Of a stretch of 64,000 bases of DNA, positions 284 to 63,711 are shown piece after piece. Numbering within the stretch: position 1 is the first letter of the stretch; every line of letters begins with the position of its first letter. The notes under the pieces were generated by a model that did not search any database, was not told where the DNA came from, and was given only the letters and a program-made list of their open reading frames with translations. A program made the position numbers and the translations under genes. Source of the stretch: a bacterium (lineage in GTDB: Bacteria > Patescibacteriota > Andersenbacteria > UBA10190); NCBI GenBank assembly GCA_002686445.1, contig NZCO01000007.1, forward strand, positions 5,483-69,482, written 5' to 3'.

Positions 284-2947
284 GTGATCTATTACACGCG
301 TATGAGCACTGCTTTTAAAGTGGGAAGTATCCTATTCATCGTCGTCCTCTTCGGGGGCGTTGTTTTGGCGCAAGCCGTTTCAGTACAGATAGAAGGGGTT
401 AGACATGTTGCCTACACAACTAATGCCGAGGAGCTGACTGCCAATCGTCTGGTTGGACAGACGTTTGTTTCCCCAAAAAAGAATCTGTCGGGCATAGGTG
501 TGTTATTCGCCACCTATTCTGGTAGGACTAACACACAGCAAGTTGAGCTCCATGTGCGTGCTTCGATCACTGACACTACGGACCTGCGGGTAGTGACGGC
601 TGATCCACGAGACTTTGGCGACAATCAGACGTACCGATTTACCTTTGACCCAATTCCGGAGAGCGATGGCGTGACTTTCTTTTTCTACGTGGTTTCTCCT
701 GGCAGTTCACCAGGTGACGCAGTCACCGTTGATCTTGATACCAGGGATCCGTATCACCTCGGCACTGCATTCTTGGTGCGCGGGCCACCCGAACTATTAA
801 ATCAGCCAACGGCGCTTGAGTTTGGCGGTAAGCAGACAATTGATGTGGCCTTTAGTACCTACCACACCGTCCCCGTTCGCACGGCGATCTTAGCGAGAGC
901 AGAGGGCGCGGCCAAGACATTCGTAGGCACCTTCTCCGAGCGACAAGGGGAGTACGGCCTATGGCTGAAGCTGACTGGGCCGGTGCTGGTCATATTGTTG
1001 CTGATGTGGGGCTTGAGTCGAGCGAACATAGAAAGCCGCCTGACCAAACCGCGAATTCTTATGGTGCTGGCGGCTTTAGTGATAGCCGGGTTCATCTGGC
1101 GCCTGTTTTATGCGGTTGATCTACCATTGACCAACGACGAAGGTAATTACCTCTACGACGCCTTTGCCCTACGCCAGGGTGTCTTAGCCGGTGGCGATGG
1201 GTACGTAAAGGCGCCGCTAGTTATAGGCTGGGTTGCACTGTGGCAAATGCTACTGGGTAACAGCATTATAGCCGCGCGCGTCGCGTCGATTGTGGTGGCG
1301 GTCTTGACCGCTGTACCGCTGTACGGCCTAGGTAAAAGCTTCGCTAATAAGCGCGCGGGATTGATGGTTGCGGCGCTGTGGCTACTGGCGGGAGCACCAG
1401 CGGTGTTTGGCATCTACGTTCACACCCAGGCCCTAGCGGTGCTGCTGGGCACTAGTGGCATAGCCCTACTGTGGGCCACACTACGCCAAGACAAACCAGT
1501 GCCCTGGAAATTCGTCATAGCCGGTGTGCTACTGGGGTTGGGTGTTGCGTCACGTAAAAGTGTGCTGGCCTTAGGGCTCCTACCACTCGTCTTTATTCTG
1601 CTCGAGTCTCCGTCATGGCGCCTGCGCGGACAGCGATTGCTCTTTACCGGACTCGGATTCGTTGCCGTGCTATTCATTCTGCTGGGTTATGCGGGCGCGC
1701 TCTACGGCGGGGAAGGGTTGCGGGAAGTAATTGGTTTGAACTCTGCAGAAGACGGGATCACCGCGGTGAACCCAGACGAGATAGAGCAGACACGCGCCTA
1801 TTCAATTCGAGGAGTCACGCCGTTCTTCCGCGAGGCATTCTCCCTGCTGGCGCTGGCGCTCATGGGTTGGGGTTTGGTGCTCGAGCGCACGACGCGTCGC
1901 ATAGTTGGTCTATTCGTCGTGGCGAAGCCGTCCAGGTATGTGCTGTGGCTAGTTGATCATTTGTTGCCTAAAATTGCATGGGTCTTCCCCCTGATCAGTC
2001 TCTGGGTGGCTTGGCAGTTCTTCTTTGAATACGAAGGTGAGATATACCACCGCTTTGGTGGCATGACTGGCCTGTGGTACACGGCTCTCCTACTTATGTT
2101 AGTGGTGCTACTGTGGCCGCGTGGTTCACGAGACGCGTTGCGGTTTACGGAAGCACCTATGGTGCCGGCTAGCACACAGCCGGTCCCATCGCGACTAGGC
2201 AGTATCAAGCCTGGGCCAGGAGAGGCTCTGCTGCACACTGAGCCGGTAGGGAAATTGCTCGCAGCCAGTCTGCTCTTACCGCTGTGGTTTGGCGGACTGT
2301 ATCTCTTCTATACCAACTGGATAAAGTTTCACGCGAATTACATAGTTGAATTTCTGGTGCCGGCCGTCATCTTGGGCGGGGTAGGTGCTGTGTATGTAGC
2401 TGCTCGACTGACGGACATTACTGGCTTTGGAGATCGACTGATACTGCTGGGAGTGTGGTTGCGGCGAGTGAGCGTCATCCTACTGTCCGCGTGGCTATTC
2501 TGGGGACTATACCTTAATAGCTACATTACGCGGACGGTGCCACATACCGGCACCTTTGATCAGGGAGCAGTCCAAGAAGCAGCGGACTGGTTGAGCCAGA
2601 ATGTCCCTGAGGACGAGACGCTGTTTACCGGTGCCGCGGCTATCCCCTACGTCGCTGAACGTCGCATCGCGCTCGATATTGCGCATCCACGATGGTATGC
2701 CTATGAATTCACTCGCAAAAACACGCCTCGCCTGAACACCTTCCTGCCCCCGATCGAGGAAATGCTACATGCGTATCGGACTGCTAATTGGTTCTTGCTT
2801 GATAAGCAGACAGGGTTCTCGTTCCTGATGGAATATAGCGAAATAGAGGCGGGTCTGGAGACTGACTGGCAGAAAGTACACGCCATTGAGAATGGCTCAA
2901 ATACGCTAACCTTTTACCGACGAACGCAGCCGTCTATCGAATTATAG
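284..2947 (+). CDS. GT-C fold membrane glycosyltransferase (ArnT/PMT GT39/83-like) with an N-terminal extracytoplasmic beta-rich module
   Basis: 887 aa. N-terminal hydrophobic anchor or signal (ILFIVVLFGGVVLAQA), then a ~95-aa module (VGQTFVSP...SPGSSPGDAVTV) shared with ORFs 7179 and 9200. Many TM helices follow, with a DEGNYLYDAF motif in the first loop (GT-C DE motif), and a ~180-aa C-terminal soluble domain. The GTG start at 284 versus ATG at 302 is ambiguous. Confidence 0.55.
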   Translation: MIYYTRMSTAFKVGSILFIVVLFGGVVLAQAVSVQIEGVRHVAYTTNAEELTANRLVGQTFVSPKKNLSGIGVLFATYSGRTNTQQVELHVRASITDTTDLRVVTADPRDFGDNQTYRFTFDPIPESDGVTFFFYVVSPGSSPGDAVTVDLDTRDPYHLGTAFLVRGPPELLNQPTALEFGGKQTIDVAFSTYHTVPVRTAILARAEGAAKTFVGTFSERQGEYGLWLKLTGPVLVILLLMWGLSRANIESRLTKPRILMVLAALVIAGFIWRLFYAVDLPLTNDEGNYLYDAFALRQGVLAGGDGYVKAPLVIGWVALWQMLLGNSIIAARVASIVVAVLTAVPLYGLGKSFANKRAGLMVAALWLLAGAPAVFGIYVHTQALAVLLGTSGIALLWATLRQDKPVPWKFVIAGVLLGLGVASRKSVLALGLLPLVFILLESPSWRLRGQRLLFTGLGFVAVLFILLGYAGALYGGEGLREVIGLNSAEDGITAVNPDEIEQTRAYSIRGVTPFFREAFSLLALALMGWGLVLERTTRRIVGLFVVAKPSRYVLWLVDHLLPKIAWVFPLISLWVAWQFFFEYEGEIYHRFGGMTGLWYTALLLMLVVLLWPRGSRDALRFTEAPMVPASTQPVPSRLGSIKPGPGEALLHTEPVGKLLAASLLLPLWFGGLYLFYTNWIKFHANYIVEFLVPAVILGGVGAVYVAARLTDITGFGDRLILLGVWLRRVSVILLSAWLFWGLYLNSYITRTVPHTGTFDQGAVQEAADWLSQNVPEDETLFTGAAAIPYVAERRIALDIAHPRWYAYEFTRKNTPRLNTFLPPIEEMLHAYRTANWFLLDKQTGFSFLMEYSEIEAGLETDWQKVHAIENGSNTLTFYRRTQPSIEL

Positions 2948-2960
2948 GGGTTCAGCGTCG

Positions 2961-3068
2961 GTGAATTGACAAAAGCACCTAATCATTGGCACTATAACAA
3001 CGCTTTAACGAGCGCAGTTAATAGGTACGTTACCAATTAAAAATAGACGTCTCGCAAGGAGCAATTAC
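2961..3068 (+). promoter_or_regulatory. Conserved upstream element, copy 1: TTGACA box, identical 21-bp core, second conserved block and SD
   Basis: TTGACA at 2966-2971. The 21-bp core TTGGCACTATAACAACGCTTT at 2986-3006 is identical to 3678-3698. A second conserved block GGTACGTTACCAA lies at 3024-3036. SD AAGGAGCA sits at 3056-3063, 5 nt before the ATG at 3069. Confidence 0.5.
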
Positions 3069-3626
3069 ATGTATGAACGCTTTACTGACCGCGCTCGCAA
3101 AGTTATGCAGCTGGCCCATCAAGAAGCGCTGCGGATGAATTTTGAGTACATCGGCACAGAGCACGTCCTGCTCGGATTGATTAAAGAGGGTTCGGGTGTT
3201 GCAGCACATGTGCTCAAGAATTTCGACATGGGCCTGCTCAATGTTCGCCAACAGATTGAGAAGCTCCTTGGGGCCGCACCTGCTGACAGGGTCGTGATAG
3301 GCAAGCTGCCGATGACACCGCGCGCCAAGCGGCTTCTCACATTCGCCGCGGCGGAAGCCCGCAATCTAGGGCACAACTGCGTCGGCACCGAACACCTGCT
3401 CTTGGCTCTAACACGATTAGATCAGTCTGTTGCTTGTCACGTCTGGCTCAGCCTAGGACATCGAATTGAGGATGTGCGCAGTGAAGTGTTCCATATGCTT
3501 GACTGTGATGATACTGCAGTGCTACCGGTTGAAACGTATTCCACTACGCGCGTTATCTACGTTGTGGACACGCACACGGTTGTGTCAGGCTGGTGGAACT
3601 GGCTCTACAGAGTTGTTATTGGCTAA
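3069..3626 (+). CDS. Standalone Clp N-terminal domain (Clp_N repeat) protein, no AAA+ module
   Basis: MYERFTDRARKVMQLAHQEALRMNFEYIGTEHVLLGLIKEGSGVAAHVLKNF... is a canonical ClpC/ClpB N-domain repeat 1 (ERFT..A..V...A..EA..L.H.YIGTEHLLLGL). The second half-repeat (LPMTPRAKRLLTFAAAEARNLGHNCVGTEHLLLAL) is more degenerate. It is followed by an atypical aromatic/hydrophobic tail. No Walker motifs are present. Confidence 0.8.
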   Translation: MYERFTDRARKVMQLAHQEALRMNFEYIGTEHVLLGLIKEGSGVAAHVLKNFDMGLLNVRQQIEKLLGAAPADRVVIGKLPMTPRAKRLLTFAAAEARNLGHNCVGTEHLLLALTRLDQSVACHVWLSLGHRIEDVRSEVFHMLDCDDTAVLPVETYSTTRVIYVVDTHTVVSGWWNWLYRVVIG

Positions 3627-3760: not shown

Positions 3761-4870
3761 ATGTATGAACGCTTTACGGATCGAGCTCGCAAGACCATGC
3801 AGCTGGCCAATCAAGAAGCACAGCGGTATAACCATGAGTACATTGGCACTGAGCATATTTTGCTTGGCTTAGCCAAGGAAGCCTCAGGCGTCGCGGCTAA
3901 TGTGCTCAAGAATCTAGATGTTGACCCAAGGGTGATTGTGCGTGAGGTTGGAAAACTCCTGCTTTCTGGGCCCGACATGGGGGTCACTATGGGCAAGCTA
4001 CCTCAGACCCCCAGGGCCAAGAAAGTCGTTGAGTTTTCCATGGATGAAGCACGCAACCTTCGTCACCATTACGTGGGGACCGAGCATATCTTGCTTGGAT
4101 TACTTCGTGAACTGGAAGGCGTTGCCGCTCAGGTACTGATCAATTTGGGTCTGCAGCTTGAGGCTGTCAGGGAAGAAACACTGAGTCTTTTGGGTGAGGG
4201 CGACCGCGGCCAGTCGTTGCGCGAGCTAGCGGCGGAAGCAGATTTGCCGTCTACTGCGGAGCTGGTCTACGAGCACACTCGTGTCGTCTTCGCAGTGACT
4301 CCGGTTAAGATCGACTGGCTAAGTTGGCTGCGCTCGCGTCGGATAGGGATCAGCTTGCTCGGACTAACTCGGTACTTGTCGTTTTCAGCGGGCTCGACCG
4401 CTGCCAGTAACGAACCCACAGGTCCGCCCAAGGAGAGCGATCAGGTAACGGCTGTGTGGCGCGAGGCAAACACTTTTGCGAAGGCGCAAAGGCGAGAATA
4501 CTTGGCTCCAGCAGACCTTCTCTATGGTGTCGCGGTTTGGGCCACAGATCCGCTGAGAGTGGTGTTGCGCGAGTATAACATCAAGACCGGACCAGTCAGA
4601 GCGGCGGTTGAACTTGCTGTGGGTCTCGGAACTGCTGAGTTCACTATGACCACTCTGCCCAAAACGCCTAACGCCAGGGCGATTCGCAAGGCGATGTGTG
4701 ACAGGGCAGCTGCAGCCGGTAGCGCTGAGGTTACGCTCCTTCATCTGGTCGAAGCATTGCTCGAAGAGCATGATGACGATCTATATCGGGTGATGATTCA
4801 AATCGGATCCCTACCAGAGCACCTAGCCGCGGAGATCCACCAGCGAGTGAGATTGGCGCAGCCCGCCTAA
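3761..4870 (+). CDS. Tandem-Clp_N protein: two complete Clp N-domain double repeats, no ATPase
   Basis: 369 aa. Residues 1-145 form a ClpC-like N-domain (MYERFTDRARKTMQLANQEAQRYNHEYIGTEHILLGL...LPQTPRAKKVVEFSMDEARNLRHHYVGTEHILLGLL). Residues ~230-360 form a second Clp_N-like unit (AVWREANTFAKAQRREYLAPADLLYGV...LPKTPNARAIRKAMCDRAAAAGSAEVTLLHLVEALL). No Walker A/B motifs. Confidence 0.8.
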   Translation: MYERFTDRARKTMQLANQEAQRYNHEYIGTEHILLGLAKEASGVAANVLKNLDVDPRVIVREVGKLLLSGPDMGVTMGKLPQTPRAKKVVEFSMDEARNLRHHYVGTEHILLGLLRELEGVAAQVLINLGLQLEAVREETLSLLGEGDRGQSLRELAAEADLPSTAELVYEHTRVVFAVTPVKIDWLSWLRSRRIGISLLGLTRYLSFSAGSTAASNEPTGPPKESDQVTAVWREANTFAKAQRREYLAPADLLYGVAVWATDPLRVVLREYNIKTGPVRAAVELAVGLGTAEFTMTTLPKTPNARAIRKAMCDRAAAAGSAEVTLLHLVEALLEEHDDDLYRVMIQIGSLPEHLAAEIHQRVRLAQPA

Positions 4871-7126
4871 CTATATGCCGTTTGCTTTTGCAAGCGGTTT
4901 TTTTCTTACCACCAATGCGACGCAGGCCAGTGCGGAGATAGTGCTTACAACAATTCCGAGAGCGAGCGGCCGAGGGCGATAGTGCATCTGCACTAGATGT
5001 GTACCCGGGGGAACATCAATCGAACGGAAGAAAGGATCGACCTGGTTAATAGTTGCTGGCTGACCATCAATGGTGGCCTGCCAGCCTGGGTACCAGGTAT
5101 CACGAACCAGCAATTCGCCCGCGGTATCAGTAGTGACGTCGAGTCGCACGTGCGCCGGTGATACTTGTTTGTAGGTAACCGGGGTAATGACCTCCGGCGT
5201 AATAAGCTCGGCGCGAGGGTAGGTACCGTTTACGTAGATGGTCCCGGCTGCTAATTCGTTTGCCGAGCCGTAGTATGTGCGCATTGTCTCGTCTTCGACT
5301 ACGACGGCGGCGATGTTAAGTTCAGTGACCAAGGTGCCGAAGACTGGTGTGGTCAGACTACTACGCAGTGCTTCGAGCTGCTGACTATGCACAGTCATTG
5401 GCAGAGACGCCGGCCACTCAATGCCCGGCAGACCAAATTGGGCGTATGTAAGCGGGCCTAGTAGTTCTCGATTGCTCCTATCTGCTGCGGGTCGTCGTGA
5501 GGCAGGGTTAGTTAGCAGTAATCCCGTGTCACCACCCTCGCGTCGGAAGGTGGCGATGCGCGCGCGTCCGGCCCTAACTGAGTCCGGGACTTGCTCAAGC
5601 GCCGCGGGCGGCGCTAACAGCGTTTGCCATGAAACCGCTGGGCTGGTGAGCGAAGCAATGATGATGAGCTCGGCTACGGCAATTGCAGTAACGACCCGCC
5701 GTTGCCGATACAGGAGAGCGGCTAAGCCAAGCGTTACCAGGGGCAAGAACGTGAACGGTGAGCGCCAGCTAAGCGCGGAAGTCTGTAGGCTGATTACCAA
5801 CTGCTCAAGTTTATCGATGTAGTAGGCGGGAGACCTGCCAGAAACCAACTCTGGGGCTCGCTCCTGTATAGCCTGGTAGGCTAACGCAGCACCGTTGTCA
5901 GGAACTAACCACAGGCCAACATTGTAGAGCACGACCACCGCCAAGATAGCGACAAAGCCGACTCGCAAGTAGCGCCGCAGAAGCGCAGGCGTTCGTTGCA
6001 GATTATCAAACGCATGTGCGGCCAGTAGCGCACCAGCAAAGGTAGTAAACAATAGCCAGCGAGCGGGGGCGGAAAATAGCCACAGCGACGGCTCGAATCC
6101 CAGTAACCGGAACGGGGACAGATTTCCTAGGGCAAGCAAGAAGGATACGAGCAGCAGTACCCACCAGAATCGCAATTGTCGTCTAATTCTCCAGGCCGCG
6201 GCTGCAAGCAGCAGCGGCAAGGTGCCAATAAAGAAACCATATTCAATCTCGAGCCGTTTACCCCAATACGCTGCATCCGTATCAAAGAAGCGCGGGAATA
6301 CGGCAGTCGGTAGATGATATAGCGGCCAGCTATGTTGGTTCGCCTGCGTCAGATCGAAGTCACCGCCCCCGCGATCAGACAGCCGGGTCAGCTCTGCTGT
6401 CGGCAGGAGCTGTGCAGAGGCTAAGCCAACTGCAAGCACTACAGCCAATAAGAAAACAAGGAGCAAGCGATGCCAGGGGAGACGATTCACCCAGCGCTGG
6501 TGGAACAAATACAGGGCCGTGATACCAGCGGTCATTAGGGGGGTTTGGATGTGACCGGCGAGGAAGGGCAGACCGAAAACAAGAGCTAGTAAGGCAAGGT
6601 GACGCGCGCGTGGCCGCGAAGCGCGAGCGACCGACTGGGCAACCAGCAACTGCCACGGTAGCCAACTCAACACAATAATGATGTTGAAATGAGTGGCGTG
6701 TTGCCATACGAATTGACTCAAGGCAAAAGCGCAGGCGCCGAGTATGGCGGCGAGTGCACTTACGCGTTGGGCGCGCAGTAGCAGATAGGTACCGGCGGCG
6801 GCTGCAAAAATATGTAGGTAAAACAGCGCCGGTAGATACAGCCAGATCGGGAACAGGCGACCAATGAGTAGTAACGGATAAAAGAAGCCTAATTGCGCAG
6901 AGGCGAGCACGGGGAACCCCCAGGCAATGTCGGGATTCCAGGAGGGGAGTCGACCAGCCAGCTGTTCACTCTGGAAGAAGGTCTCCAGGGGAATATACAC
7001 GTCGGCGGTGTCACCCGTGCCGTAGTATTGGCCAGCAAAAATTGGCGCAGCCGCCAACCCAATTACTACTGCCAGGATTACCAGCACGGCGAGGCGTTTC
7101 ATGCGATAATTGTAAGATGAAACCAC
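4871..7126 (-). CDS. YfhO-family-like polytopic membrane protein (GT-C-like glycosyltransferase)
   Basis: 751 aa. N-terminal region ...YIPLETFFQSEQLAGRLPSWNPDIAWGFPVLASAQLGFFYPLLL... is followed by more than 10 TM helices. The C-terminal soluble domain ends ...TWYPGWQATIDGQPATINQVDPFFRSIDVPPGTHLVQMHYRP, the characteristic YfhO C-terminal beta-domain pattern (W..W.a.vDG....i..v......v.v..G.H.v...Y). The start could be the internal Met at ~7102. Confidence 0.6.
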   Translation of the reverse strand: MVSSYNYRMKRLAVLVILAVVIGLAAAPIFAGQYYGTGDTADVYIPLETFFQSEQLAGRLPSWNPDIAWGFPVLASAQLGFFYPLLLIGRLFPIWLYLPALFYLHIFAAAAGTYLLLRAQRVSALAAILGACAFALSQFVWQHATHFNIIIVLSWLPWQLLVAQSVARASRPRARHLALLALVFGLPFLAGHIQTPLMTAGITALYLFHQRWVNRLPWHRLLLVFLLAVVLAVGLASAQLLPTAELTRLSDRGGGDFDLTQANQHSWPLYHLPTAVFPRFFDTDAAYWGKRLEIEYGFFIGTLPLLLAAAAWRIRRQLRFWWVLLLVSFLLALGNLSPFRLLGFEPSLWLFSAPARWLLFTTFAGALLAAHAFDNLQRTPALLRRYLRVGFVAILAVVVLYNVGLWLVPDNGAALAYQAIQERAPELVSGRSPAYYIDKLEQLVISLQTSALSWRSPFTFLPLVTLGLAALLYRQRRVVTAIAVAELIIIASLTSPAVSWQTLLAPPAALEQVPDSVRAGRARIATFRREGGDTGLLLTNPASRRPAADRSNRELLGPLTYAQFGLPGIEWPASLPMTVHSQQLEALRSSLTTPVFGTLVTELNIAAVVVEDETMRTYYGSANELAAGTIYVNGTYPRAELITPEVITPVTYKQVSPAHVRLDVTTDTAGELLVRDTWYPGWQATIDGQPATINQVDPFFRSIDVPPGTHLVQMHYRPRPLALGIVVSTISALACVALVVRKKPLAKANGI
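4878..4904 (+). terminator. Intrinsic terminator for the plus-strand Clp_N gene, embedded in the 3' coding end of the convergent minus-strand gene
   Basis: CCGTTTGC-tttt-GCAAGCGG hairpin (7/8 bp) at 4878-4897, followed by TTTTTTT at 4898-4904. The stop codons of the two convergent genes abut (TAA at 4868-4870, CTA/TAG at 4871-4873). Confidence 0.5.
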
Positions 7127-11170: not shown

Positions 11171-11193
11171 ACTTTCCACAATAAAACCATTGC

Positions 11194-11208
11194 GGCCAAT
11201 AATTGGCC
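11194..11208. promoter_or_regulatory. Perfect 15-bp palindrome GGCCAATAATTGGCC upstream of orphan gene 11282
   Basis: Read directly from sequence, about 75 nt upstream of the ATG at 11282. SD AAGGAGAAGAGG immediately precedes the start. Confidence 0.4.
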
Positions 11209-11281
11209 TGGTAAACTGCTAAACGGCCTTGAAGCAGGGTGCACATTTCACTTGGACATTCGTCCATAAGGAGAAGAGGCA

Positions 11282-12289: not shown

Positions 12290-12295
12290 GCTCTT

Positions 12296-12332
12296 GCCCC
12301 CGTATCTCTACCGAGAAACGGGGTCTTTTTTT
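12296..12332 (+). terminator. Rho-independent terminator after 11282-12289
   Basis: CCCCGT(a)TCTC-tacc-GAGA(a)ACGGGG extended hairpin at 12298-12323, followed by TCTTTTTTT at 12324-12332. Confidence 0.65.
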
Positions 12333-12386
12333 GCCACGTAGACGGCTCGACCAACGACTGAGCCGTTTATCGGCTATACTGACCGG

Positions 12387-51520: not shown

Positions 51521-51529
51521 TTACGAACC

Positions 51530-52699: not shown

Positions 52700-52709
52700 T
52701 CCAAACGAT

Positions 52710-53771: not shown

Positions 53772-53817
53772 TACATCGCGACGAAATTTGCCCAACTGAA
53801 CGTATAGTAATAACAGC

Positions 53818-56204: not shown

Positions 56205-56214
56205 TATCCCCGGT

Positions 56215-56385
56215 CCGCCTCCGCCAGCAGGCGGGTGGCGGAGTCGCGGGAGTGGGAGGCTTTCGTAAATGTTGCGGCGGCGGCCGCCTCTCTGCCAACA
56301 AAACGACCCTGGTTCCATTCGCCTCGCAAATACCCCGTGGCAATATGCCTGCTGGCAGGCAGGGCCACGGGGTGGCGAATGGATC
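56215..56385. other. Hairpin-dense GC-rich convergent intergenic region (terminator cluster or structured RNA)
   Basis: CTCCGCCA-9nt-TGGCGGAG hairpin at 56218-56242. 14-bp palindrome GGCGGCCGGCCGCC at 56275-56288. A 68-nt nested hairpin at 56315-56382 (CCATTCGCC...CCCCGTGGC...GCCTGC-tg-GCAGGC...GCCACGGGG-t-GGCGAATGG) is followed by ATCGTTTTAT. Confidence 0.45.
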
Positions 56386-56388
56386 GTT

Positions 56389-57444
56389 TTATAAGTACGT
56401 AAGCGCTGCCTGCTCTACTTGCACGGTCGTGAGACCAAGCAGCGACTCATGTGTAGTTTGACCCAGATCTTGCTGCAGCTCGGTCGTATAGACAGCGCTA
56501 CTACCCTCCGCTCGCAAGCTGACAGCCTCCTGACCTCTCGGGCCAGTTAACTGCTCATCAGTTGGCCCGAATAAACCAATTGTCGGCGTGCCGGTGGCTG
56601 CCGCTAAATGCATTAATCCTGAGTCATTCGCCACTACCGCAGCACACTGTTGCATAACGCCAGCGGTCGCCAACAACGACCCAGACACAGCTGATGCATG
56701 TCTGCCGATGCCTGCAACCAACCTATTTTTTAAATCACCTTCATCTGGTCCACCGAAAACCGCTACATGGGCGTTGTGTTTAGTCGTTAGGGTACGGCCC
56801 AGCTCAATAAACCGCTCGCGCGGCCAGCGCTTCCAGGCAAAATCGGGTGCTGAGCCAGCGTGGAGCCCTACCAAGCGACGGGAGGCGTCAATGCGCATGC
56901 CCGCAATCAGTTTTTCAGCCGCAGCCTTGTCTGCTGGCTCCAGTGGGGGAATCGAATACGGGCTATTGTGGTACGGCGAATCATCGATACCCAGCTCGCT
57001 CAGCAGCCGTAGGTTCTGCTCGATGTCATGCATGCCCTCTACTTCGGGAATCGCCCTTGTTAGCAAAAAAGAACTTTTGGGATTGCCTAGGTATGCATAG
57101 TGATGGCCAATGCGTTCATGTATGCCGGCCAAGAACATCTGGGCGGCGCCTTTCCACAACTGCCCGGGAGATAGCATGATGGCGAGATCAAAACGCCGCG
57201 AGATCAGGTTCCAAGTGTGTAGTCCCGTCAGCAGCACTGACCGTCGGATCGGGGCTTCAATAACCTTATCGACGTTCGGATCAGCTAAGGCGAGCGCCTT
57301 CGTGCCGCGCGGTGCCACCCACACTGTAATCTTCGCGCTGGGCCACTCCTCCTTGAGCGCCGCAATCGTCGGCGCCTGCATTAGGTAGTTACCAATGCCC
57401 GACAACGACAGAAATAGTATTTTTTGCGATTGGTCTGAATCCAT
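56389..57444 (-). CDS. Glycosyltransferase family 9 (ADP-heptose:LPS heptosyltransferase-like)
   Basis: ILFLSLSGIGNYLMQAPTIAALKEEWPSAKITVWV (GT9 N-terminal pattern) and DSGLMHLAAATGTPTIGLFGPT (GT9 C-terminal signature). Confidence 0.75.
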   Translation of the reverse strand: MDSDQSQKILFLSLSGIGNYLMQAPTIAALKEEWPSAKITVWVAPRGTKALALADPNVDKVIEAPIRRSVLLTGLHTWNLISRRFDLAIMLSPGQLWKGAAQMFLAGIHERIGHHYAYLGNPKSSFLLTRAIPEVEGMHDIEQNLRLLSELGIDDSPYHNSPYSIPPLEPADKAAAEKLIAGMRIDASRRLVGLHAGSAPDFAWKRWPRERFIELGRTLTTKHNAHVAVFGGPDEGDLKNRLVAGIGRHASAVSGSLLATAGVMQQCAAVVANDSGLMHLAAATGTPTIGLFGPTDEQLTGPRGQEAVSLRAEGSSAVYTTELQQDLGQTTHESLLGLTTVQVEQAALTYL

Positions 57445-57482
57445 ACGAGATGTGCTCCTTAGCAGTATATCAGGAGTATCAC

Positions 57483-58646
57483 TTAACCTAGCAGCTCATC
57501 GTAGAGCGATGTGATCTTGTCGATGCTCCCTTCCCAGCTAAAGTTCTCGCGCACACGTCGCTGCCCGGCCTGACCGAAGCGCTCGCGCAAGGAGCGGTCC
57601 TGAAGCAGCGTGATTAATTTGTCTGCTAGCTCCTTATTTTCTTCGAACAACAAGCCTACTTCTTGGTCCGGTGCCACATAAGGTACGGCTGACACGTTGC
57701 GAGCCACCACGGGTGTGCCGGCCGCCAGGCTTTCAGCTAGCACGATCCCAAATGCTTCGTATTGTGTAGGATGCACAAGGAGCGCGGCGTGCTGATAAGC
57801 TCCGACTAAGGCCATGTCGCTTAGTCTTCCGGCAAAGTGGACATGAGCAGTGACGCCTAGTGTCTCCGCGGCTGCCTCTAAATCGGACTGTATGCCAAAG
57901 TCCTCACCAACTAATACGAACTGCGCATCGGGCACGGCCTTAAGCACTTCAGGTAAAGCTCTGAACACCGCCTTAAGGCCCTTTCCCAGACTCAAACGAC
58001 TAACGGACAGCATTACTGGTCCACGCCGGCTGATTTCCGCAAATGGATTGGGTTGAGCTGTTGTCAGCACGGCTTCGTCGACCCCGGGTGAAATGAGCTC
58101 AAATCGCTTAACCGGCAGACCAGAGCGCTCAATAAGCTCCTGCTCAAAGGGAGAAATCACAGCCACGACATCCGCGGCCGCGAAGGTGGCCCGGCCGATA
58201 GTATGTTTATACAGTTGCCACTGCCATTTACGGCGCAGCGCATTCTCATAGTAAATAGGATGGAAAATGAACGGGATGTCGTGCGATCGAGCGTAGCGCG
58301 CCGCAGCGTCCGCCGGTTGGTACCAAAAGCTGTGCCCGTGAACGACGTCGGGCTGATGGTGCCCGAGGTAATGGCTTAGGCCCTGCAGGCGTGGATATGA
58401 AATAAGTGGCGTGTCCTTGGCGCGCAGCCGCTGAACGTATGGTGGATCGTCCTGTAGGGCTTCCCGAGCGAGTTCTGAGATTGGTCGATGCGTGCGCATG
58501 GTGCTAGTCAGCACCCTAACATCTCGAAGAGACTGGTCCGTGGCATCAGGCGAGACACGACGGGTGCGCTGAGCTATCTCCTGAACATAACGCTCAACCC
58601 CGCCAGTGGCGGGCGGATAGCGTAAACACGTATGTACGATTCGCAT
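57483..58646 (-). CDS. Glycosyltransferase family 4
   Basis: HPTQYEAFGIVLAESLAAGTPVVARNVSAVPYVA. Confidence 0.8.
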   Translation of the reverse strand: MRIVHTCLRYPPATGGVERYVQEIAQRTRRVSPDATDQSLRDVRVLTSTMRTHRPISELAREALQDDPPYVQRLRAKDTPLISYPRLQGLSHYLGHHQPDVVHGHSFWYQPADAAARYARSHDIPFIFHPIYYENALRRKWQWQLYKHTIGRATFAAADVVAVISPFEQELIERSGLPVKRFELISPGVDEAVLTTAQPNPFAEISRRGPVMLSVSRLSLGKGLKAVFRALPEVLKAVPDAQFVLVGEDFGIQSDLEAAAETLGVTAHVHFAGRLSDMALVGAYQHAALLVHPTQYEAFGIVLAESLAAGTPVVARNVSAVPYVAPDQEVGLLFEENKELADKLITLLQDRSLRERFGQAGQRRVRENFSWEGSIDKITSLYDELLG

Positions 58647-58812
58647 GTTTTGATCCTAACGTATCGAAATGATAATGACACCTCGGTCTGCTGCCCGAGC
58701 CGGTGCGCTGACACTCTCACCCAACTTCGCCCTGCGGGCTTCGCAGGGTTATCCGTTTGCTCGATCTTCGTCGCTCCAGTACCTGGAGCAGACTCATATC
58801 GGCAAACGAAAT

Positions 58813-58845
58813 AAAAAAACGGCTCATTTTTTTGGTTGAGCCGTT
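58813..58845 (-). terminator. Rho-independent terminator after minus-strand gene 58849-59256
   Basis: Minus strand reads AACGGCTCA-accaaaaaaa-TGAGCCGTT followed by TTTTTTT. Confidence 0.6.
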
Positions 58846-58848
58846 GTG

Positions 58849-59256
58849 CTACCGTGCGCTATAGCCAATCCACCAAGCCATGAATCCAAGTGCGCCGCCT
58901 ACGCCTGCGGACATTGGCCAGCTCCACCAAGCGAGTAAATCCCCATGATTGTGCTCGTACAGGAAGTGGACCGCGCCAAAAATGGCGCCGAAGCCTACAA
59001 TCGGAATCAATATCATGGCCAGGTTCCATACCATCGACTTGAGCAATGGCATCACCATGGGTGTAATACCTACGAGGAAGCCAGTGACCGTAGTTCCGAC
59101 CGTGCAGTAGAGAACGTAATCGGGTTGCAAGTAAAGCCCCAGTGCGATTCCTACGGGTATGCCAATTATTCCAAGTAGCAGTGGCGTAAGAAGAGGTCTT
59201 AGAGCTCTTCTTTTTGCCTTGCGAACCCTCTTCGGTTCCAGTGTGGCATCGCTCAT
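58849..59256 (-). CDS. Small 4-TM membrane protein, hypothetical
   Basis: 135 aa. Basic N-terminus KRVRKAKRRALR followed by four hydrophobic helices. Confidence 0.4.
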   Translation of the reverse strand: MSDATLEPKRVRKAKRRALRPLLTPLLLGIIGIPVGIALGLYLQPDYVLYCTVGTTVTGFLVGITPMVMPLLKSMVWNLAMILIPIVGFGAIFGAVHFLYEHNHGDLLAWWSWPMSAGVGGALGFMAWWIGYSAR

Positions 59257-59329
59257 TTTTTGACTCCCTTCGAGGGGAACGAAATAGTTAAGGTACAGCC
59301 TGCACAGTATGCGACCTTAGGCTTAATTG

Positions 59330-60109
59330 TCAATAGTCAATTTTTGCGAGGTACTTACGTCCCATCTCAAACTCGTAGTAGCCAGAAAGGACACACCAGA
59401 GCCATCCCGCGGGCCCGTCAAGCAGGCCACGGCGGTAAATAAACAACTTCAGAAATTGCCGAACCGCCAACCAGAGCGGCATCAGGTACCCGGGGCGAAT
59501 ATGACGGCCAGAACGATGGTGGCCGGTGCGCGCTATTTCCTCTGCATCCAGGGTCGTATAACGGTGCATTTTGTCTAAATACGAGCGTATGGTCGGATGA
59601 GAGTGGTGCATCAGGGGCGCCTTTAGAACTGCTGAGTGCGTATCGCCCAAAGCAATCCGCTCTCCCATGTTGGTTTCAACTTGCTCGTGGACTTTGGCGT
59701 CGTTCCATTGCCCTGAGGCCCGCCGCATCAGCCGAGGGTTATGGCCGTACAGGTGCCACAGGGGGCGCCGCAGAAACACCGTTACGATGCGTAGCCAATA
59801 GAAGTCCTTATCTGGATTCGTCATGGCTTCAACAATCAGCTGCTGTAGCTCATCGGTCACTTCCTCATCCGCATCAATGAAGAGTAGCCACTCACCCTTA
59901 GCTTGCGCTCGCCCGAAGTTCTTCTGGGGGCCATAGCCCGGCCAGGGCCGAACAAACACGGTCGCGCCGGCATCACGTGCCAGCTGTGCTGTCTTGTCGG
60001 TACTCTCGGCATCAACCACTATTCGCTCATCAGCAAAGGCGACGCTGGTTAGGCAGCGTTCAATGTTATCCTCCTCGTTTCTGGTAATGACGATTGCTGA
60101 GAGCTGCAT
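59330..60109 (-). CDS. Glycosyltransferase family 2 (GT-A)
   Basis: MQLSAIVITRNEEDNIERCLTSV...ERIVVDAESTDKTAQLA...LLFIDADEEVT. Confidence 0.8.
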   Translation of the reverse strand: MQLSAIVITRNEEDNIERCLTSVAFADERIVVDAESTDKTAQLARDAGATVFVRPWPGYGPQKNFGRAQAKGEWLLFIDADEEVTDELQQLIVEAMTNPDKDFYWLRIVTVFLRRPLWHLYGHNPRLMRRASGQWNDAKVHEQVETNMGERIALGDTHSAVLKAPLMHHSHPTIRSYLDKMHRYTTLDAEEIARTGHHRSGRHIRPGYLMPLWLAVRQFLKLFIYRRGLLDGPAGWLWCVLSGYYEFEMGRKYLAKIDY

Positions 60110-60114
60110 AAGAC

Positions 60115-60756
60115 TTATGATATGACAGACTTGATAGTACGAACTGAAATGCCCACGCGCTTAATGAATCCGAGGTGTTTAACAAAATCGGTATAGGGTA
60201 CGGCGTACGTTCCCTCAGACGTGTCGTCGATGACATGGTACGTCTCGATCAGCCAACGACCTCTAAGCTGTGCCCACAATACTCGTAGGTTTGCCTTAAA
60301 CAGAGACCAATTACGGTTGGTGTAGTTTACCGTCTTAAGCCGCATCGCGTCCCTTGGGGGCACCGTCTCCATCCCAAAGTCTGTGGTGCGGCCAGCTTGA
60401 TATATGGCCATAGCCGCGGTCACGACCGAATCATTGTACCCGCCTCCAGGGTATGCCAGCGTTGTGGCGGCCAGCTCTTGCGCAGGGCGAGCGAGCTCGT
60501 CGGCCAACTGGTCCGGAGATAGTGACCGCAGGTTGGCGTGTGAAATGCTGTGCGCGGCGAGCTCATGCCCTTGCTGCACGATCGATAACCAGTCTTGCGA
60601 TGGCGTCACCGGCATGTTCTCGCTCGCTGCAACCCTCTCTGTATCAAGTGGAATCGCGAACACTCCCACCATGCCCATACTGTCCAACAGGGGCACGATT
60701 TTCTTGTAGACGTGGCGATACCCATCATCAAATGTCAGCGTCAGTATTCCGGGCAT
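60115..60756 (-). CDS. Polysaccharide deacetylase (CE4/NodB-homology)
   Basis: LTLTFDDGYRHVY (motif 1, TFDDG) and ELAAHSISHANL (His-His motif). Confidence 0.7.
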   Translation of the reverse strand: MPGILTLTFDDGYRHVYKKIVPLLDSMGMVGVFAIPLDTERVAASENMPVTPSQDWLSIVQQGHELAAHSISHANLRSLSPDQLADELARPAQELAATTLAYPGGGYNDSVVTAAMAIYQAGRTTDFGMETVPPRDAMRLKTVNYTNRNWSLFKANLRVLWAQLRGRWLIETYHVIDDTSEGTYAVPYTDFVKHLGFIKRVGISVRTIKSVIS

Positions 60757-60765
60757 AGCCGATGT

Positions 60766-61977
60766 TTAAACGATCGCGCGTATCACGTCAAGTAGTCTCG
60801 TGCCGCAACTGCCGTCCGTATGCGTGATCATCTTCTGTAGCGTTCGCATACGCTCTGCCTTGTGCAGGGCTGGGTCGTCCAAGTACGCATTCACTGCCGT
60901 CACCAGCTCACGTGTGCTTTTAACGATACTGGTGCCACCCTCGTCGGTTATATACAGATAGTGCTGCTGGAAATCCCGATAGACCATTGAGCGACGCCAT
61001 CCTAGCCAATCCCACGGCTTTCCATATTTGACGTTGATGACTGGCACATCAGCTGCCATAGACTCGATCGCCACTGTAGACGATTGGTTTACCAACACGC
61101 TGGTGTGCGTAAACAGAGCAATGAGCATATACGTCTCTTCGTCTGTCGGGACGTATTTAAAGTCAGGGTGCAGAGCTGTGTCCCGCCGCCCAAAGGAGTA
61201 GCGCACGCGTGCACCGAAAGATTCATAGACTCGATGCTTCGCAATATCCCCACCCGGATGTACGGATGCATAGAGTTCAACGGGGCCAGACAATTTGTTG
61301 CCATCGCGCGCCTGGGCCAGGGCCTCAATGACGTAGGTAAATGGATAGAGTTCGGTGGTGGCACAGTGAATGAGGCAGGACTCCTTGCCGTCTAGTTCAA
61401 GATACTTCCCTAAGTCGTTGCGAGACGGGATGCGATCGTGGTGGGCGAAGTAATCAAAACGAGGCGGGCCCGTTATGGTAATCATCTCATCGGTAACTCC
61501 AGGAACTACTGCCAGCAAGTGTTCCTTGTTCATGGTATTCCAAACCGCATAGTGGTCTGGCAGCTCATAGTCACCGCCTCCCGCCTTGCTGCTGCCACTG
61601 TGTCCCTTGCTAAACAATCGCTCCATCTTAAAGACGTTATCCCAGCTGGCGACGAACGTAAGAGTCGGGATATCGAGCTGCTTGGCAGCACGTAAGATGC
61701 GCGTATCGAGCACGTCCAAGCCTACGGTGGGCGTAACGACAACGTCGGGCTTTAGCTGCTCAAGTAACGCTCGGTGGCCAGATTCATCTTGCGGATTAGT
61801 ATGCCAGGAGAACTTGTCGCCAAAGGACGGAAACAGTTCCTTGTGCCAGGGAGCGGCTGGCGTCACGACCTGGACTGCATCAATATCGGTCGCAGCTTCA
61901 AGCTGTTCGCGTAGCGGCAGCAATATCTCCCGGGCGTTATACCCGGATGGTGTTGAAATAAGTACGCGAAAGGCCAT
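60766..61977 (-). CDS. GT-B-fold transferase (TagB/TagF- or MGDG-synthase-like), hypothetical
   Basis: Start taken at MAFRVLISTPSGYN (ATG 61977; the ORF-track start is TTG 62013). C-terminal NQSSTVAIESMAADVPVINVKYG resembles the TagF/GT-B C-terminal nucleotide-binding block. A possible -35/-10 pair (TTGTCA-17-CATTAT) sits immediately upstream. Confidence 0.4.
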   Translation of the reverse strand: MAFRVLISTPSGYNAREILLPLREQLEAATDIDAVQVVTPAAPWHKELFPSFGDKFSWHTNPQDESGHRALLEQLKPDVVVTPTVGLDVLDTRILRAAKQLDIPTLTFVASWDNVFKMERLFSKGHSGSSKAGGGDYELPDHYAVWNTMNKEHLLAVVPGVTDEMITITGPPRFDYFAHHDRIPSRNDLGKYLELDGKESCLIHCATTELYPFTYVIEALAQARDGNKLSGPVELYASVHPGGDIAKHRVYESFGARVRYSFGRRDTALHPDFKYVPTDEETYMLIALFTHTSVLVNQSSTVAIESMAADVPVINVKYGKPWDWLGWRRSMVYRDFQQHYLYITDEGGTSIVKSTRELVTAVNAYLDDPALHKAERMRTLQKMITHTDGSCGTRLLDVIRAIV

Positions 61978-62104
61978 ATAGGGCATAATGCGGCATAATC
62001 GAGCTATTGACAAATGCCAGCCAAGACTCCATAATTCTGCCAGTTCAGTTTGTTCGTTTCAGTAACAACTATGATGGCAAGAAACTGTTTTAGGAGGACA
62101 GGAC

Positions 62105-62923: not shown

Positions 62924-62941
62924 TTCCAACAAAATCATACA

Positions 62942-62969
62942 CTCTGCACAACGTGTGCAGAGTTTTTTT
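62942..62969. terminator. Hairpin terminator between convergent genes
   Basis: CTCTGCACA-acg-TGTGCAGAG (9-bp stem) at 62942-62962, followed by TTTTTTT at 62963-62969, which overlaps the stop of the minus-strand gene. Confidence 0.6.
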
Positions 62970-63711
62970 ATTTACCCATTAGGCGTAGTCGCCAAACGAG
63001 CACAATTGCCTCTTTAATTATTTTAGTCGTCATCTTTGATTGCCCTTCGCGACGCTCCGTAAATACGATTGGTATTTCCTTCACCTGATAGCCTTGCTTC
63101 CAGGCCCGATAGTTATTCACTATTTGAAAACCGTATCCATCAGCATCGCTCGTTTCTATGTGTATACCTCGCAGCGTGTCGGCGCGCCAAGCCTTAAAGC
63201 CGCCGGTCGAGTCAGAAAGGGGTAAGCCGGTGATGATTCTGGCGTACAGGTTACCGCCAATGCTGATTAACAACCGCTTCAATGGCCAGTTCACTACGCT
63301 GATGCCTTGGCTGTACCGAGAGCCAACGACAAGATCGTTTTCTTGAAGCTCGCCTAGTAGGCGCGAGACATCCTTAGGGCTGTGTGAGAAATCAGCATCC
63401 ATTTGCACTATCGCATCAGCACCGTGCTCCAAGGCGTAGGTAAACCCGTGCACGTACGCTTTGCCTAAGCCCGCCTTGTTGTCTCTAACCACCAGCTGCA
63501 CGGAAGGGAACTGTGACTCCAGGCCGCGGACAGCGTCGGCAGTCCCATCGGGAGAATTATCGTCGACTATAAGCACGGTCAGGTTGTCTATGCCTAATCC
63601 ATACAGCTGTGTAATCAGTTGTGCGATGTTTTCTATCTCGTTATAGGTAGGCACCACTACCCATGGGCTATGGCTGGTGAACGGTTCTGCCGGCTTTCGG
63701 GCTGTCTTCAT
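62968..63711 (-). CDS. ppm1: Polyprenol-monophosphomannose synthase-like GT2 (DPM1/Ppm1 catalytic-domain type, soluble)
   Basis: VVVPTYNEIENIAQLI...LIVDDNSPDGTADAV...LGKAYVHGF...VQMDADFSHSP is a very close match to DPM1/Ppm1 signature blocks. No C-terminal TM helices. Confidence 0.7.
   Translation of the reverse strand: MKTARKPAEPFTSHSPWVVVPTYNEIENIAQLITQLYGLGIDNLTVLIVDDNSPDGTADAVRGLESQFPSVQLVVRDNKAGLGKAYVHGFTYALEHGADAIVQMDADFSHSPKDVSRLLGELQENDLVVGSRYSQGISVVNWPLKRLLISIGGNLYARIITGLPLSDSTGGFKAWRADTLRGIHIETSDADGYGFQIVNNYRAWKQGYQVKEIPIVFTERREGQSKMTTKIIKEAIVLVWRLRLMGK

Follow-up and report, generated by a model that had tools for sequence, protein, structure and literature searches.

A probable cell-envelope glycan locus of an uncultivated Patescibacteria bacterium with ten GT-C glycosyltransferase genes and three candidate polyprenyl-phosphate-sugar synthases

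A probable glycan super-locus rich in GT-C enzymes

We analyzed a 64-kb stretch of contig NZCO01000007.1 (assembly GCA_002686445.1; hereafter the window, in which each gene is named by the first position of its open reading frame [ORF]) from the metagenome-assembled genome (MAG) of an uncultivated marine, ultra-small member of the Patescibacteria (candidate phyla radiation [CPR]). The window represents most of a probable cell-envelope glycan super-locus of at least 69 kb and carries ten genes for membrane glycosyltransferases of the GT-C type. This density (10 genes in 64 kb) is far beyond chance; the model Firmicutes tabulated in a review have one to three GT-A/GT-C pairs in an entire genome (PMC8035078). 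The exceptional concentration of such enzymes proposed in a first-pass annotation, which was made from the sequence alone, is real. This density appears to be typical of the lineage rather than unique to this genome, because a related MAG (L002) has five GT-C genes in 20 kb. Together with three candidate synthases of lipid-linked sugars, the ten genes probably belong to a cell-envelope glycopolymer pathway in which up to ten GT-C enzymes would lengthen or decorate the product outside the cell, with three lipid-linked sugars as donors. Homology also supports the more general proposal of the first-pass annotation, namely, an extracytoplasmic glycosylation system fed by lipid-linked sugars.

The window is 93% coding, with ∼52 ORFs; all ORFs of at least 150 aa and the small ORFs in gaps were scanned against Pfam, and a subset was also scanned against NCBIfam. 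About 28 of the ∼52 ORFs encode glycosyltransferases (10 GT-C, 11 GT4, 5 GT2, 1 GT9, and 1 TagF/BFO_1060-like GT-B), and most of the other genes serve glycan synthesis, including three short-chain dehydrogenases/reductases (SDRs) and a partial fourth, an AsnB-type amidotransferase, four methyltransferases, an APH-type kinase beside a nucleotidyltransferase (NTP-transferase)/HAD fusion, a NodB-type deacetylase, and a fused ATP-binding cassette (ABC) exporter. The cytoplasmic half of the locus (the 11 GT4 enzymes, three further GT2 enzymes, the GT9 and TagF-like enzymes, the exporter, and the sugar-modifying enzymes) had been understated in the first-pass annotation. The encoded proteins are identical to GenBank entries MAF80468 to MAF80518 (locus tags CL628_), on a contig of 83,671 bp, and to sequences from the mesopelagic 0.1- to 0.22-µm fraction of TARA station 37. 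The flanks were taken from a TARA scaffold identical to the window across 12,947 nt, and the parts read (∼5.5 kb on the left and 0.9 kb on the right) contain further GT2, GT4, GT9-like, SDR, and NTP-transferase genes. The locus runs past both edges of the window, with a GT9-like ORF beyond the right edge (L009:1-1107).

The cell envelope of CPR bacteria is largely unknown, and it is the interface for attachment to other cells and for phage contact in these tiny, mostly host-dependent organisms. In this CPR organism, glycan synthesis takes up at least 69 kb, which is probably several per cent of the genome. Judging in part from related contigs of 0.5 to 0.7 Mb, that genome would be ∼1 Mb in size. 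No description of GT-C-rich loci in Patescibacteria was found in the literature searched, and a paper on the pili of Saccharibacteria calls their glycosylation "unexplored." The enzymes and the logic of the locus are already known, and no part of it is a new kind of enzyme; what is new is the scale (a reduced genome with ten GT-C genes in 64 kb), the lopsided ratio of donor synthases to transferases, a ten-gene block shared across the lineage, and a GT-C family of large size for which Pfam has no model. The locus is thus a well-supported lead into the CPR cell envelope rather than a new mechanism, and it offers a testable parts list of three candidate lipid-sugar synthases and ten predicted outside-acting transferases.

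Features and families of the GT-C enzymes

All ten GT-C ORFs are intact and full length, and each encodes a polytopic protein with ∼6 to 13 hydrophobic segments on the Kyte-Doolittle scale, which under-counts the segments of 49406; helical bundles are seen in the AlphaFold2 (AF2) models of 24997 and 49406. All ten proteins show significant sequence or fold similarity to established GT-C families (Pfam and Foldseek), and these membrane proteins are GT-C enzymes, as had been proposed, rather than transporters; GenBank annotates every one that was looked up, 49406 included, as a hypothetical protein. In each of the ten, an acidic motif stands just past the helix that precedes the predicted first outside loop, and the loop with this motif would lie outside the cell. 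The motif takes the form of a DE pair in all five PMT-like proteins (the only invariant pair in an alignment of eight PMT-like sequences), of an Asp after transmembrane segment 1 (TM1) that is invariant across five YfhO-like sequences, and of a GGD motif that is invariant in both the 24997 and the 49406 families. The ten enzymes would be expected to use polyprenyl-phosphate-linked sugars as donors. Sequence searches of the Protein Data Bank (PDB) with 9200, 4871, and a profile of the 49406 family gave no match, and Pfam searches with isolated segments of the outside domains returned only the known C-terminal YfhO matches and sub-threshold noise, so that none of these domains could be named. 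According to Pfam and NCBIfam, the GT-C set has no sequence-level relation to the GT87, GT53, or Emb families, and no NCBIfam equivalog match linked the PMT-like set to a characterized Pmt (GT39). A combinatorial use of the paralogs, which the first-pass annotation had suggested, is speculation.

Five of the enzymes are ArnT/PMT-like, as had been read from the sequence, and each passes the gathering cutoff of PMT_2 (PF13231; 26.1 bits) or PMT (PF02366; 22.7 bits), one of them (12387) barely. The first, 284 (284 to 2947, + strand), is of the PMT_2 type (33.8 bits), with 13 hydrophobic segments in a maximal ORF of 887 aa (881 aa in the public call, which starts at position 302); a signal-anchor helix is followed by an extra outside domain (aa ∼35 to 225) and then by the GT-C core, with DE at aa 285 and 286. 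Tandem paralogs with 43% identity over their full length are formed by 7179 (7179 to 9203, + strand), which is of the PMT/PMT_2 type (PMT, 30.7 bits; PMT_2, 24.8 bits, below the cutoff), and 9200 (9200 to 11170, + strand), which is of the PMT_2 type (42.9 bits); both have the DE motif and a C-terminal outside domain, that of 7179 being ∼270 aa long. The marginal PMT_2-type enzyme 12387 (12387 to 13823, + strand; 26.7 bits) keeps the invariant DE and has an ortholog in L002 (49 to 51% identity), while 21091 (21091 to 22563, − strand; 490 aa) matches both PMT (39.5 bits) and PMT_2 (39.7 bits), has the DE motif, and shows weak NCBIfam matches to Agl23 and WsfD.

A soluble module of ∼130 aa (LVGQTF.SP...FATYS.R.NTQ.V...SP.S.PGDAVTV) recurs at the N terminus of 284 and at the C termini of 7179 and 9200 (positions 386 to 958 [aa 35 to 225 of 284], 8376 to 9200, and 10397 to 11167); aa 42 to 171 of 284 match the C-terminal domains of 9200 and 7179 with E values of 2e-19 and 4e-16, respectively. 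The module had no Pfam or PDB sequence match and is probably an acceptor-recognition domain shuffled among the paralogs. Adjoining 21091, a 132-aa protein (22588 to 22986, + strand) consists of an N-terminal hydrophobic helix and a subsequent charged helix (LLQSRAEKRDGIRRDE...LELYFND). Its N terminus recalls pilin/pseudopilin-like proteins and is without a canonical prepilin cleavage site, and a homolog on another Patescibacteria contig (L006:3855-4349, − strand; E value, 1e-11) adjoins a PMT_2 gene; the protein may serve as an acceptor or have an accessory role.

Three further enzymes had been described as clearly YfhO-like, which holds clearly for 4871 and marginally for 15717, whereas 13828 fails the YfhO gathering cutoff (PF09586; 28.5 bits). 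The YfhO-family enzyme 4871 (4871 to 7126, − strand; 751 aa, called as 743 aa) scores 64 bits. The match of 15717 (15717 to 18554, − strand; 945 aa, called as 937 aa), which has an outside domain of ∼450 aa, is limited to its C-terminal region (29.9 bits), yet its membrane domain and that of 4871 share 29% identity across 400 aa (E value, 1e-34), and L002 holds an ortholog with 44% identity. A DUF6541/PTPS_related type (42.9 and 29.7 bits, both passing) is the better description of 13828 (13828 to 15678, − strand), which is only distantly YfhO-like (17.8 bits), with weak paralogy to 4871 and 15717 and the invariant Asp; its ortholog in L002 shares 53% identity. Weak NCBIfam matches to PgfM1/PgfM2 were obtained for 4871 and 13828.

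Two GT-C folds without a Pfam family

No Pfam match above cutoff was found for 24997 or 49406, which had been put forward as further large polytopic candidates; AF2 models and Foldseek searches gave both of them a GT-C fold, so that all ten candidates count as GT-C enzymes. The model of 24997 (24997 to 26475, − strand), built from 7 sequences with a predicted local distance difference test (pLDDT) score of 74.9, had GT-C enzymes as all 21 of its best PDB matches in Foldseek (STT3, AglB, PglB, DPY19, ALG9, AftA, and ArnT; TMq, 0.44 to 0.59). The protein has GGD after TM1 and a small C-terminal outside domain, and D58 is invariant in seven homologs of 442 to 469 aa. An assignment of 24997 as a Wzy/EpsG-type polymerase was rejected, with an EpsG score of 23.3 bits against a cutoff of 30.1 bits and a fold search that returned GT-C enzymes only.

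The other enzyme, 49406 (49406 to 51520, + strand), heads the conserved block described below and combines a GGDPWQ motif after TM1 with a C-terminal alpha/beta domain and a beta-sandwich like those of carbohydrate-binding module (CBM) families 6 and 35. Its nearest structural neighbor is AftD, and AftA and AftB are also among the structural matches of the GT-C models; the similarity of 49406 to STT3, PglB, and ArnT is equally high. The family comprises 1177 representative clusters at an E value of ≤1e-30 and 5829 at ≤1e-10, and none of the 46 members tested matched Pfam-A above noise. Invariant motifs of the family are GGDPWQ..WRF after TM1, AHS.GHFGA.Q.QWLP, and QAWTEHHYALW, with D39 invariant in 36 sequences, and most named homologs belong to Candidatus Andersenbacteria or the "Patescibacteria group." Some distant members reach 1000 to 1370 aa and carry extra lectin-like domains. 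A relation between the 49406 and 24997 families through the shared GGD was considered and discarded, as hhalign gave a probability of 1% and no relation was detectable.

Polyprenyl-phosphate-sugar synthases

Of the five GT2 genes in the window (36126, 43994, 47020, 59330, and 62968), 47020 and 62968 fall in the polyprenyl-phosphate-sugar synthase branch, as the first-pass annotation had it, rather than among processive synthases, while 59330, 43994, and 36126 fall outside this branch. The soluble DPM1/Ppm1-type enzyme 62968 (62968 to 63711, − strand) has no TM segment and matches the Pyrococcus dolichyl-phosphate-mannose (Dol-P-Man) synthase (PDB 5mlz) over aa 12 to 242 with an E value of 1.5e-30; the motifs DAD, GSRY, and RREGQSK (R-x-x-G-x-S-K) are kept, and the GenBank name is "dolichyl-phosphate beta-D-mannosyltransferase" (MAF80518.1). 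This agrees with the soluble Ppm1-like enzyme recognized earlier; by homology, 62968 is a polyprenyl-phosphate-hexose synthase, and the hexose that it loads is probably mannose.

The second enzyme, 47020 (47020 to 47751, + strand), had been taken for a membrane-anchored synthase of the GtrB/CsbB type (∼310 to 340 aa, with two C-terminal helices), but it is a short protein (243 aa) of the GacI/PpgS type with one hydrophobic C-terminal segment. Its best NCBIfam match, to PpgS (102.9 bits; E value, 1.7e-29), lies below the equivalog cutoff of 370 bits and is followed by matches to AglJ and to a Dol-P-hexose transferase; its PDB matches are DPMS, ArnC, and GtrB, and the motifs DGD and RQGGVS can be read in its sequence. 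The gene overlaps by 17 nt with 47735 (47735 to 48178, + strand), which encodes a GacJ/Rv3632-like membrane partner of the DUF2304 family (79.8 bits; cutoff, 25.5 bits), so that the small membrane partner reported earlier was correctly seen, although with three predicted TM segments and not four. Homology identifies the two proteins as a putative GacI/GacJ-type two-protein synthase. Work on the GacI/GacJ and PpgS/Rv3632 pairs has shown that the small partner binds the synthase or stimulates it (10.1101/180810; PMC8035078), with GacJ and Rv3632 stimulating GacI and PpgS, respectively (10.1101/180810). The genes 47020, 47735, 48175 (an epimerase), and 49406 all lie on one strand.

The description as a GtrB/CsbB-like synthase fits instead a 313-aa GT2 of the ArnC/GtrB type located on the same contig, 2.5 to 3.4 kb to the left of the window start (L013:2107-3048), which matches ArnC (E value, 5e-41) and GtrB (4e-27) over its full length, two C-terminal helices included. 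GT4, SDR, and NTP-transferase genes adjoin it.

A ten-gene block conserved in distant Patescibacteria

Within the GTDB set, the Candidatus Saccharibacteria MAG L002 is the nearest genome, and its orthologs of 12387, 13828, 15717, and the amidotransferase gene have 43 to 56% identity. More distant Patescibacteria share the right part of the window: the ten genes from 49406 to 62013 are collinear in four contigs (L005 to L008, up to 698 kb long, with the block near positions 10001 to 22000 of each) at 39 to 62% identity, as would be expected of a core envelope component. The block consists of the GT-C gene, four GT4 genes (39 to 55% identity), a GT9 gene and another GT4 gene (43 to 55%), and a GT2 gene with the genes for the NodB deacetylase and the TagF-like enzyme (the set from 59330 to 60766; 39 to 62%). 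In two of the four contigs (L005 and L007), a GT2-DUF2304 pair stands directly beside the 49406 ortholog. The nine other GT-C genes lie outside this block, in the left 46 kb of the window, a part that varies among relatives. Homologs of 31249 and 32199 lie immediately upstream of the 49406 ortholog in L008.

A proposed glycopolymer pathway and its alternatives

For each component, the analysis shows a family or a fold, and it also shows the synteny and the catalytic-motif signatures described above; the pathway built on these is, in our view, probable. In the cytoplasm, the 11 GT4 enzymes, three GT2 enzymes, the GT9 enzyme, and the TagF-like enzyme would assemble a lipid-linked glycan, the sugars of which would be made or modified by the SDR epimerases, the amidotransferase, the methyltransferases, the kinase/nucleotidyltransferase pair, and the deacetylase; the ABC exporter 28340 would probably carry this glycan across the membrane. 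In parallel, three GT2 enzymes (62968, 47020 with 47735, and the ArnC/GtrB-type enzyme upstream) would load single sugars onto polyprenyl phosphate. Drawing on these lipid-linked donors, the ten GT-C enzymes would lengthen or decorate the exported glycopolymer, and possibly certain proteins, on the outside of the membrane, with the differing outside domains giving each paralog its own acceptor site. We infer donor use, topology, the order of these steps, and a glycan rather than a protein as acceptor with reference to a known scheme, in which a GT-A enzyme loads a sugar onto undecaprenyl phosphate, the product is flipped, and a GT-C enzyme passes the sugar to a wall polymer, a lipoteichoic acid, or a protein (PMC8035078; PMC12041528). 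Every enzyme class of this GT-A/flippase/GT-C scheme is present save a recognizable flippase. Experiments have established both the GacI/GacJ/GacL and PpgS/Rv3632 precedents (10.1101/180810) and the general scheme (PMC8035078). A glycan acceptor is favored for at least 49406 because of its CBM-like domain, its head-of-operon position before four GT4 genes, and the link that a review draws between such domains and polymers, CBM-type domains being tied to polymer binding in AftD and YfhO (PMC8035078).

Several observations weigh against this proposal. Among the scanned ORFs of the window and the flanks read (∼70 kb), no GtrA/Wzx flippase for polyprenyl-phosphate sugars, no priming phosphoglycosyltransferase, and no LCP ligase were found, so that the pathway is incomplete as seen; these genes may lie elsewhere in the genome, and the flippase of characterized systems is frequently encoded apart, as in Bacillus subtilis and Lactococcus lactis (PMC8035078). 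Three synthases for ten GT-C enzymes depart from the one-to-one pairs of characterized systems (PMC8035078), and 49406 is the only GT-C gene kept in all relatives examined. Proteins are the targets of YfhO- and PMT-type enzymes in certain bacteria (PMC12041528), and characterized YfhO- and PMT_2-type enzymes act on proteins as well as on wall polymers (PMC8035078; PMC12041528), which makes the polymer acceptor here a presumed one. The family scores of 12387 and 15717 are marginal, that of 13828 is below the YfhO cutoff, and the 24997 model, given its pLDDT score and its 7 sequences, is of moderate confidence. Every step is supported by homology and not by experiment.

The locus might instead serve mainly protein O-glycosylation, with the DPM1-type synthase and the PMT-like enzymes, and the other GT2 and the YfhO-like enzymes, modifying Ser/Thr residues of surface or secreted proteins (S-layer proteins, pilins, or membrane-anchored proteins), as actinobacterial Ppm1/Pmt and streptococcal GtrB/PgtC2 and Pgf do. 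We regard this as rather unlikely, and it could coexist with polymer glycosylation. The loop 1 DE motif and the PMT matches of 7179 and 21091 would suit it, as would the weak PgfM1/PgfM2 matches of 4871 and 13828, considering that the YfhO-family enzymes PgfM1 and PgtC2 glycosylate proteins, and the GT2-epimerase-GT-C order of 47020 to 49406, which recalls pgfS-pgfM1-pgfE-pgfM2 (PMC12041528). The pilin-like 22588 stands next to a PMT-like gene here and its homolog next to a PMT_2 gene in L006, and pilin glycosylation has been predicted, though not shown, in Saccharibacteria. However, what PMT_2-type enzymes decorate in Firmicutes is mostly teichoic acid or wall polysaccharide (PMC8035078), no Ser/Thr-rich disordered protein was found among the window ORFs, and the CBM-like domain of 49406, its nearest Foldseek neighbor AftD (which builds a polysaccharide), and the presence of ∼17 cytoplasmic transferases with an ABC exporter point to a polymer.

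A polymer would also be the product if the GT-C enzymes were not decorators but the chain builders of a lipoglycan or wall heteropolysaccharide on a GT4-made primer, in the mycobacterial style, a scenario that we find doubtful; it is likewise doubtful that each GT-C enzyme would add a specific linkage from a few polyprenyl-phosphate-sugar donors. In the actinobacterial model, PimA/PimB act first and are followed by PimE, MptA, MptB, Emb, and Aft enzymes fed by Ppm1. The many GT4 enzymes with a Ppm1-type synthase, the AftD, AftA, and AftB structural matches, and the GT-C-headed block kept across the lineage resemble this arrangement; three donors for ten GT-C enzymes are closer to Actinobacteria than to the paired systems of Firmicutes, and Bacillus anthracis needs such a system to assemble its wall polymer itself (PMC8035078). 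Yet STT3, PglB, and ArnT are structurally as similar, nothing specific to Aft or Mpt was seen, no sequence-level relation to GT87, GT53, or Emb was found, and only 49406 lies in the conserved block, the nine GT-C genes of the variable part fitting decoration or strain-level variation better. A broader version of this idea, to which we give a similarly low probability, is that the main envelope glycopolymer would be built outside the membrane by GT-C enzymes from two or three polyprenyl-phosphate sugars, with the 49406 block as a lineage-wide core machine and the nine variable paralogs generating strain-specific surface diversity, which, if true, would be relevant to host attachment or phage escape. 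Quite improbable, in our view, is an ordinary ABC-exporter polysaccharide cluster in which most of the GT-C genes are decaying duplicates or have non-transferase roles (carrier-lipid recycling or scaffolding). The marginal Pfam scores and the poor conservation of the left half of the window beyond L002 would be compatible with decay, and an ABC exporter with many GT4 enzymes would suffice for a polymer; against this, all ten ORFs are intact in a window that is 93% coding, the acidic residues of loop 1 do not vary among paralogs or orthologs, L002 retains orthologs of 12387, 13828, and 15717 at 43 to 53% identity, and a reduced genome would be unlikely to keep ∼20 kb of dead genes.

Comparison with known systems

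The closest systems are GacI/GacJ/GacK/GacL of Streptococcus pyogenes, which adds the N-acetylglucosamine (GlcNAc) side chain of the group A carbohydrate, and PpgS/Rv3632/Rv3779 of Mycobacterium tuberculosis, which adds galactosamine (GalN) to arabinogalactan. As in these, a short GT2 of the type making polyprenyl-phosphate-N-acetylhexosamine stands beside a DUF2304 partner with a GT-C gene nearby (47020, 47735, and 49406), and a backbone from cytoplasmic transferases would be exported by an ABC system. The differences are that 47020, at 102.9 bits, is not an ortholog of PpgS; that, unlike in the Gac system, no Wzx-type GacK was found and there are ten GT-C enzymes, not one; and that the associated GT-C enzyme 49406 belongs to a family without a Pfam model, whereas GacL is of the PMT_2 type. 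The CsbB/GtcA/YfhO and other GT-A/GtrA/GT-C systems of Firmicutes, known as multi-component transmembrane glycosylation systems, glycosylate teichoic acids and wall polysaccharides (PMC8035078). They agree with the locus in their three enzyme classes and in their predicted logic; the locus has both YfhO-type and PMT_2-type GT-C enzymes, and a true GtrB/ArnC-type synthase with two helices lies a short way upstream of the window. However, they occur as adjacent one-to-one GT-A/GT-C pairs, unlike the three synthases and ten GT-C enzymes in one locus here, where no GtrA-family flippase was detected.

From the actinobacterial Ppm1 pathways (Pmt in protein O-mannosylation; PimE/MptA/MptB in lipomannan assembly) and the arabinofuranosyltransferase AftD, the locus differs in that no protein belongs by sequence to GT39, GT87, GT53, or AftD (DUF3367) and the likeness to actinobacterial GT-C enzymes and AftD is one of fold only (8 to 13% identity), in a host that is a reduced-genome CPR bacterium. 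The Pgf system of Streptococcus mutans (PgfS, PgfM1, PgfE, and PgfM2) similarly brings together a GT2 synthase, a 4-epimerase-like SDR, and YfhO-type GT-C enzymes (PMC12041528), but the PgfM1, PgfM2, and PgfS models score only ∼16 to 37 bits here against cutoffs of 500 to 1500, and genes for Ser/Thr-rich adhesins are absent. Finally, the locus differs from a Wzx/Wzy-dependent O-antigen or capsule cluster, as the first-pass annotation had anticipated in setting it apart from a simple O-antigen cluster: neither Wzx, Wzy, nor WaaL, no chain-length regulator (Wzz), and no priming phosphoglycosyltransferase was detected among the scanned ORFs.

Cytoplasmic and sugar-modifying genes

Assembly of the acceptor polymer is probably the task of the cytoplasmic half of the locus. 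A run on the − strand from 39791 to 47010, assigned with the Pfam models Glycos_transf_1, Glyco_trans_1_4, and Glycos_transf_2, comprises five GT4 genes (39791, 40822, 43008, 44785, and 45868), the GT2 gene 43994, which is closest to EpsE/TuaG in NCBIfam, and the methyltransferase gene 41945. Further GT4 genes were assigned by Pfam at 27178 to 28269, in the conserved block as four consecutive genes (51530, 52668, 53818, and 54942; 51530 to 56204, + strand), and at 57483 to 58646 (− strand). The GT9 enzyme (heptosyltransferase family; 56389 to 57444, − strand) scores 104.7 bits with Glyco_transf_9 and 114.3 bits with heptosyltransferase II (cutoff, 134.6 bits). GT9 genes, this one and that beyond the right edge (L009:1-1107), thus occur in a CPR bacterium that is presumed to be single-membraned and without lipopolysaccharide, and no heptose-nucleotide pathway was recognized within the window. 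At the right end of the block (59330 to 62013, − strand; Pfam and NCBIfam), a soluble GmaR/SunS-like GT2 (59330; PDB match to GmaR, 7.9e-14), the NodB-type deacetylase (60115), and the TagF/BFO_1060-like GT-B enzyme (60766) follow one another. An ArnC/ArnD-like pair of 59330 and 60115, in which a deacylase would accompany another lipid-sugar synthase, was considered and rejected for 59330, which resembles GmaR, SunS, and TIGR04283 and not polyprenyl-phosphate synthases.

The fused exporter 28340 (28340 to 30208, + strand; ABC_membrane plus ABC_tran, that is, a transmembrane domain joined to a nucleotide-binding domain) matches the HepA family (411.6 bits), MsbA (360 bits), and PglK (203.6 bits), all below the equivalog cutoffs, and is a candidate exporter or flippase of the lipid-linked glycan. 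Small membrane ORFs were also considered as GtrA flippases and dismissed: those at 58849 to 59256, 20627 to 21037, and 22588 to 22986 have no Pfam match. The first of these (− strand; 135 aa, called as a gene), with about four hydrophobic stretches by eye and three by Kyte-Doolittle, is not kept in L005 to L008 and is a weak candidate for a flippase.

The AsnB-type glutamine-dependent amidotransferase 18632 (18632 to 20512, + strand; Asn_synthase, 305 bits; asn_synth_AEB, 435 bits) has as its best NCBIfam match an amidotransferase of the exopolysaccharide-linked XrtA system and stands beside glycan genes in L002, L005, and L007; it probably amidates a sugar acid or another glycan component. 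Nucleotide-sugar epimerases/dehydratases of the SDR type are encoded at 23717 to 24715 (− strand; Epimerase/GDP_Man_Dehyd, ∼200 bits) and, according to Pfam, at 30282 to 31256 and 48175 to 49155, with a partial SDR at 1 to 283. Sugar activation and modification genes, also assigned by Pfam, fill the region from 33422 to 39825 (the APH-type kinase 33422, the NTP-transferase/HAD fusion 34296, the GT2 36126, and an ORF, 37812, without an assigned function), and the methyltransferases lie at 35434, 37104, 38848, and 41945. The pair at 33422 to 35441, an APH-type kinase followed by an NTP-transferase-like N terminus fused to a HAD phosphatase domain (both weak matches), might serve to activate an unusual sugar phosphate or a substituent that is not a sugar; a LicD-type transferase was not seen.

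Other features of the window

The GC content is 0.47 to 0.50 at positions 28000 to 38000 and 0.52 to 0.57 elsewhere, with a raised GC skew in this segment, which carries the ABC exporter, an SDR, two unknown ORFs, the kinase/nucleotidyltransferase pair, and methyltransferases and may be an exchanged cassette. Scans of the window for tRNA genes and Rfam families found no element. The maximal ORFs of 284, 4871, 15717, 12387, 24997, and 60766 exceed the public gene calls or homologs by 6 to 50 codons (called or homolog lengths of 463 aa for 12387, ∼442 to 469 aa for 24997, and 406 aa for 60766, with the others as given above); the true starts are probably downstream ATG codons, and the family assignments are unaffected by the choice of start. 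Two paralogs with 49% identity (3069 to 3626 and 3761 to 4870) are built from Clp_N repeat domains and lack an ATPase domain; both stand among the GT-C genes, and this placement is kept in TARA scaffolds.

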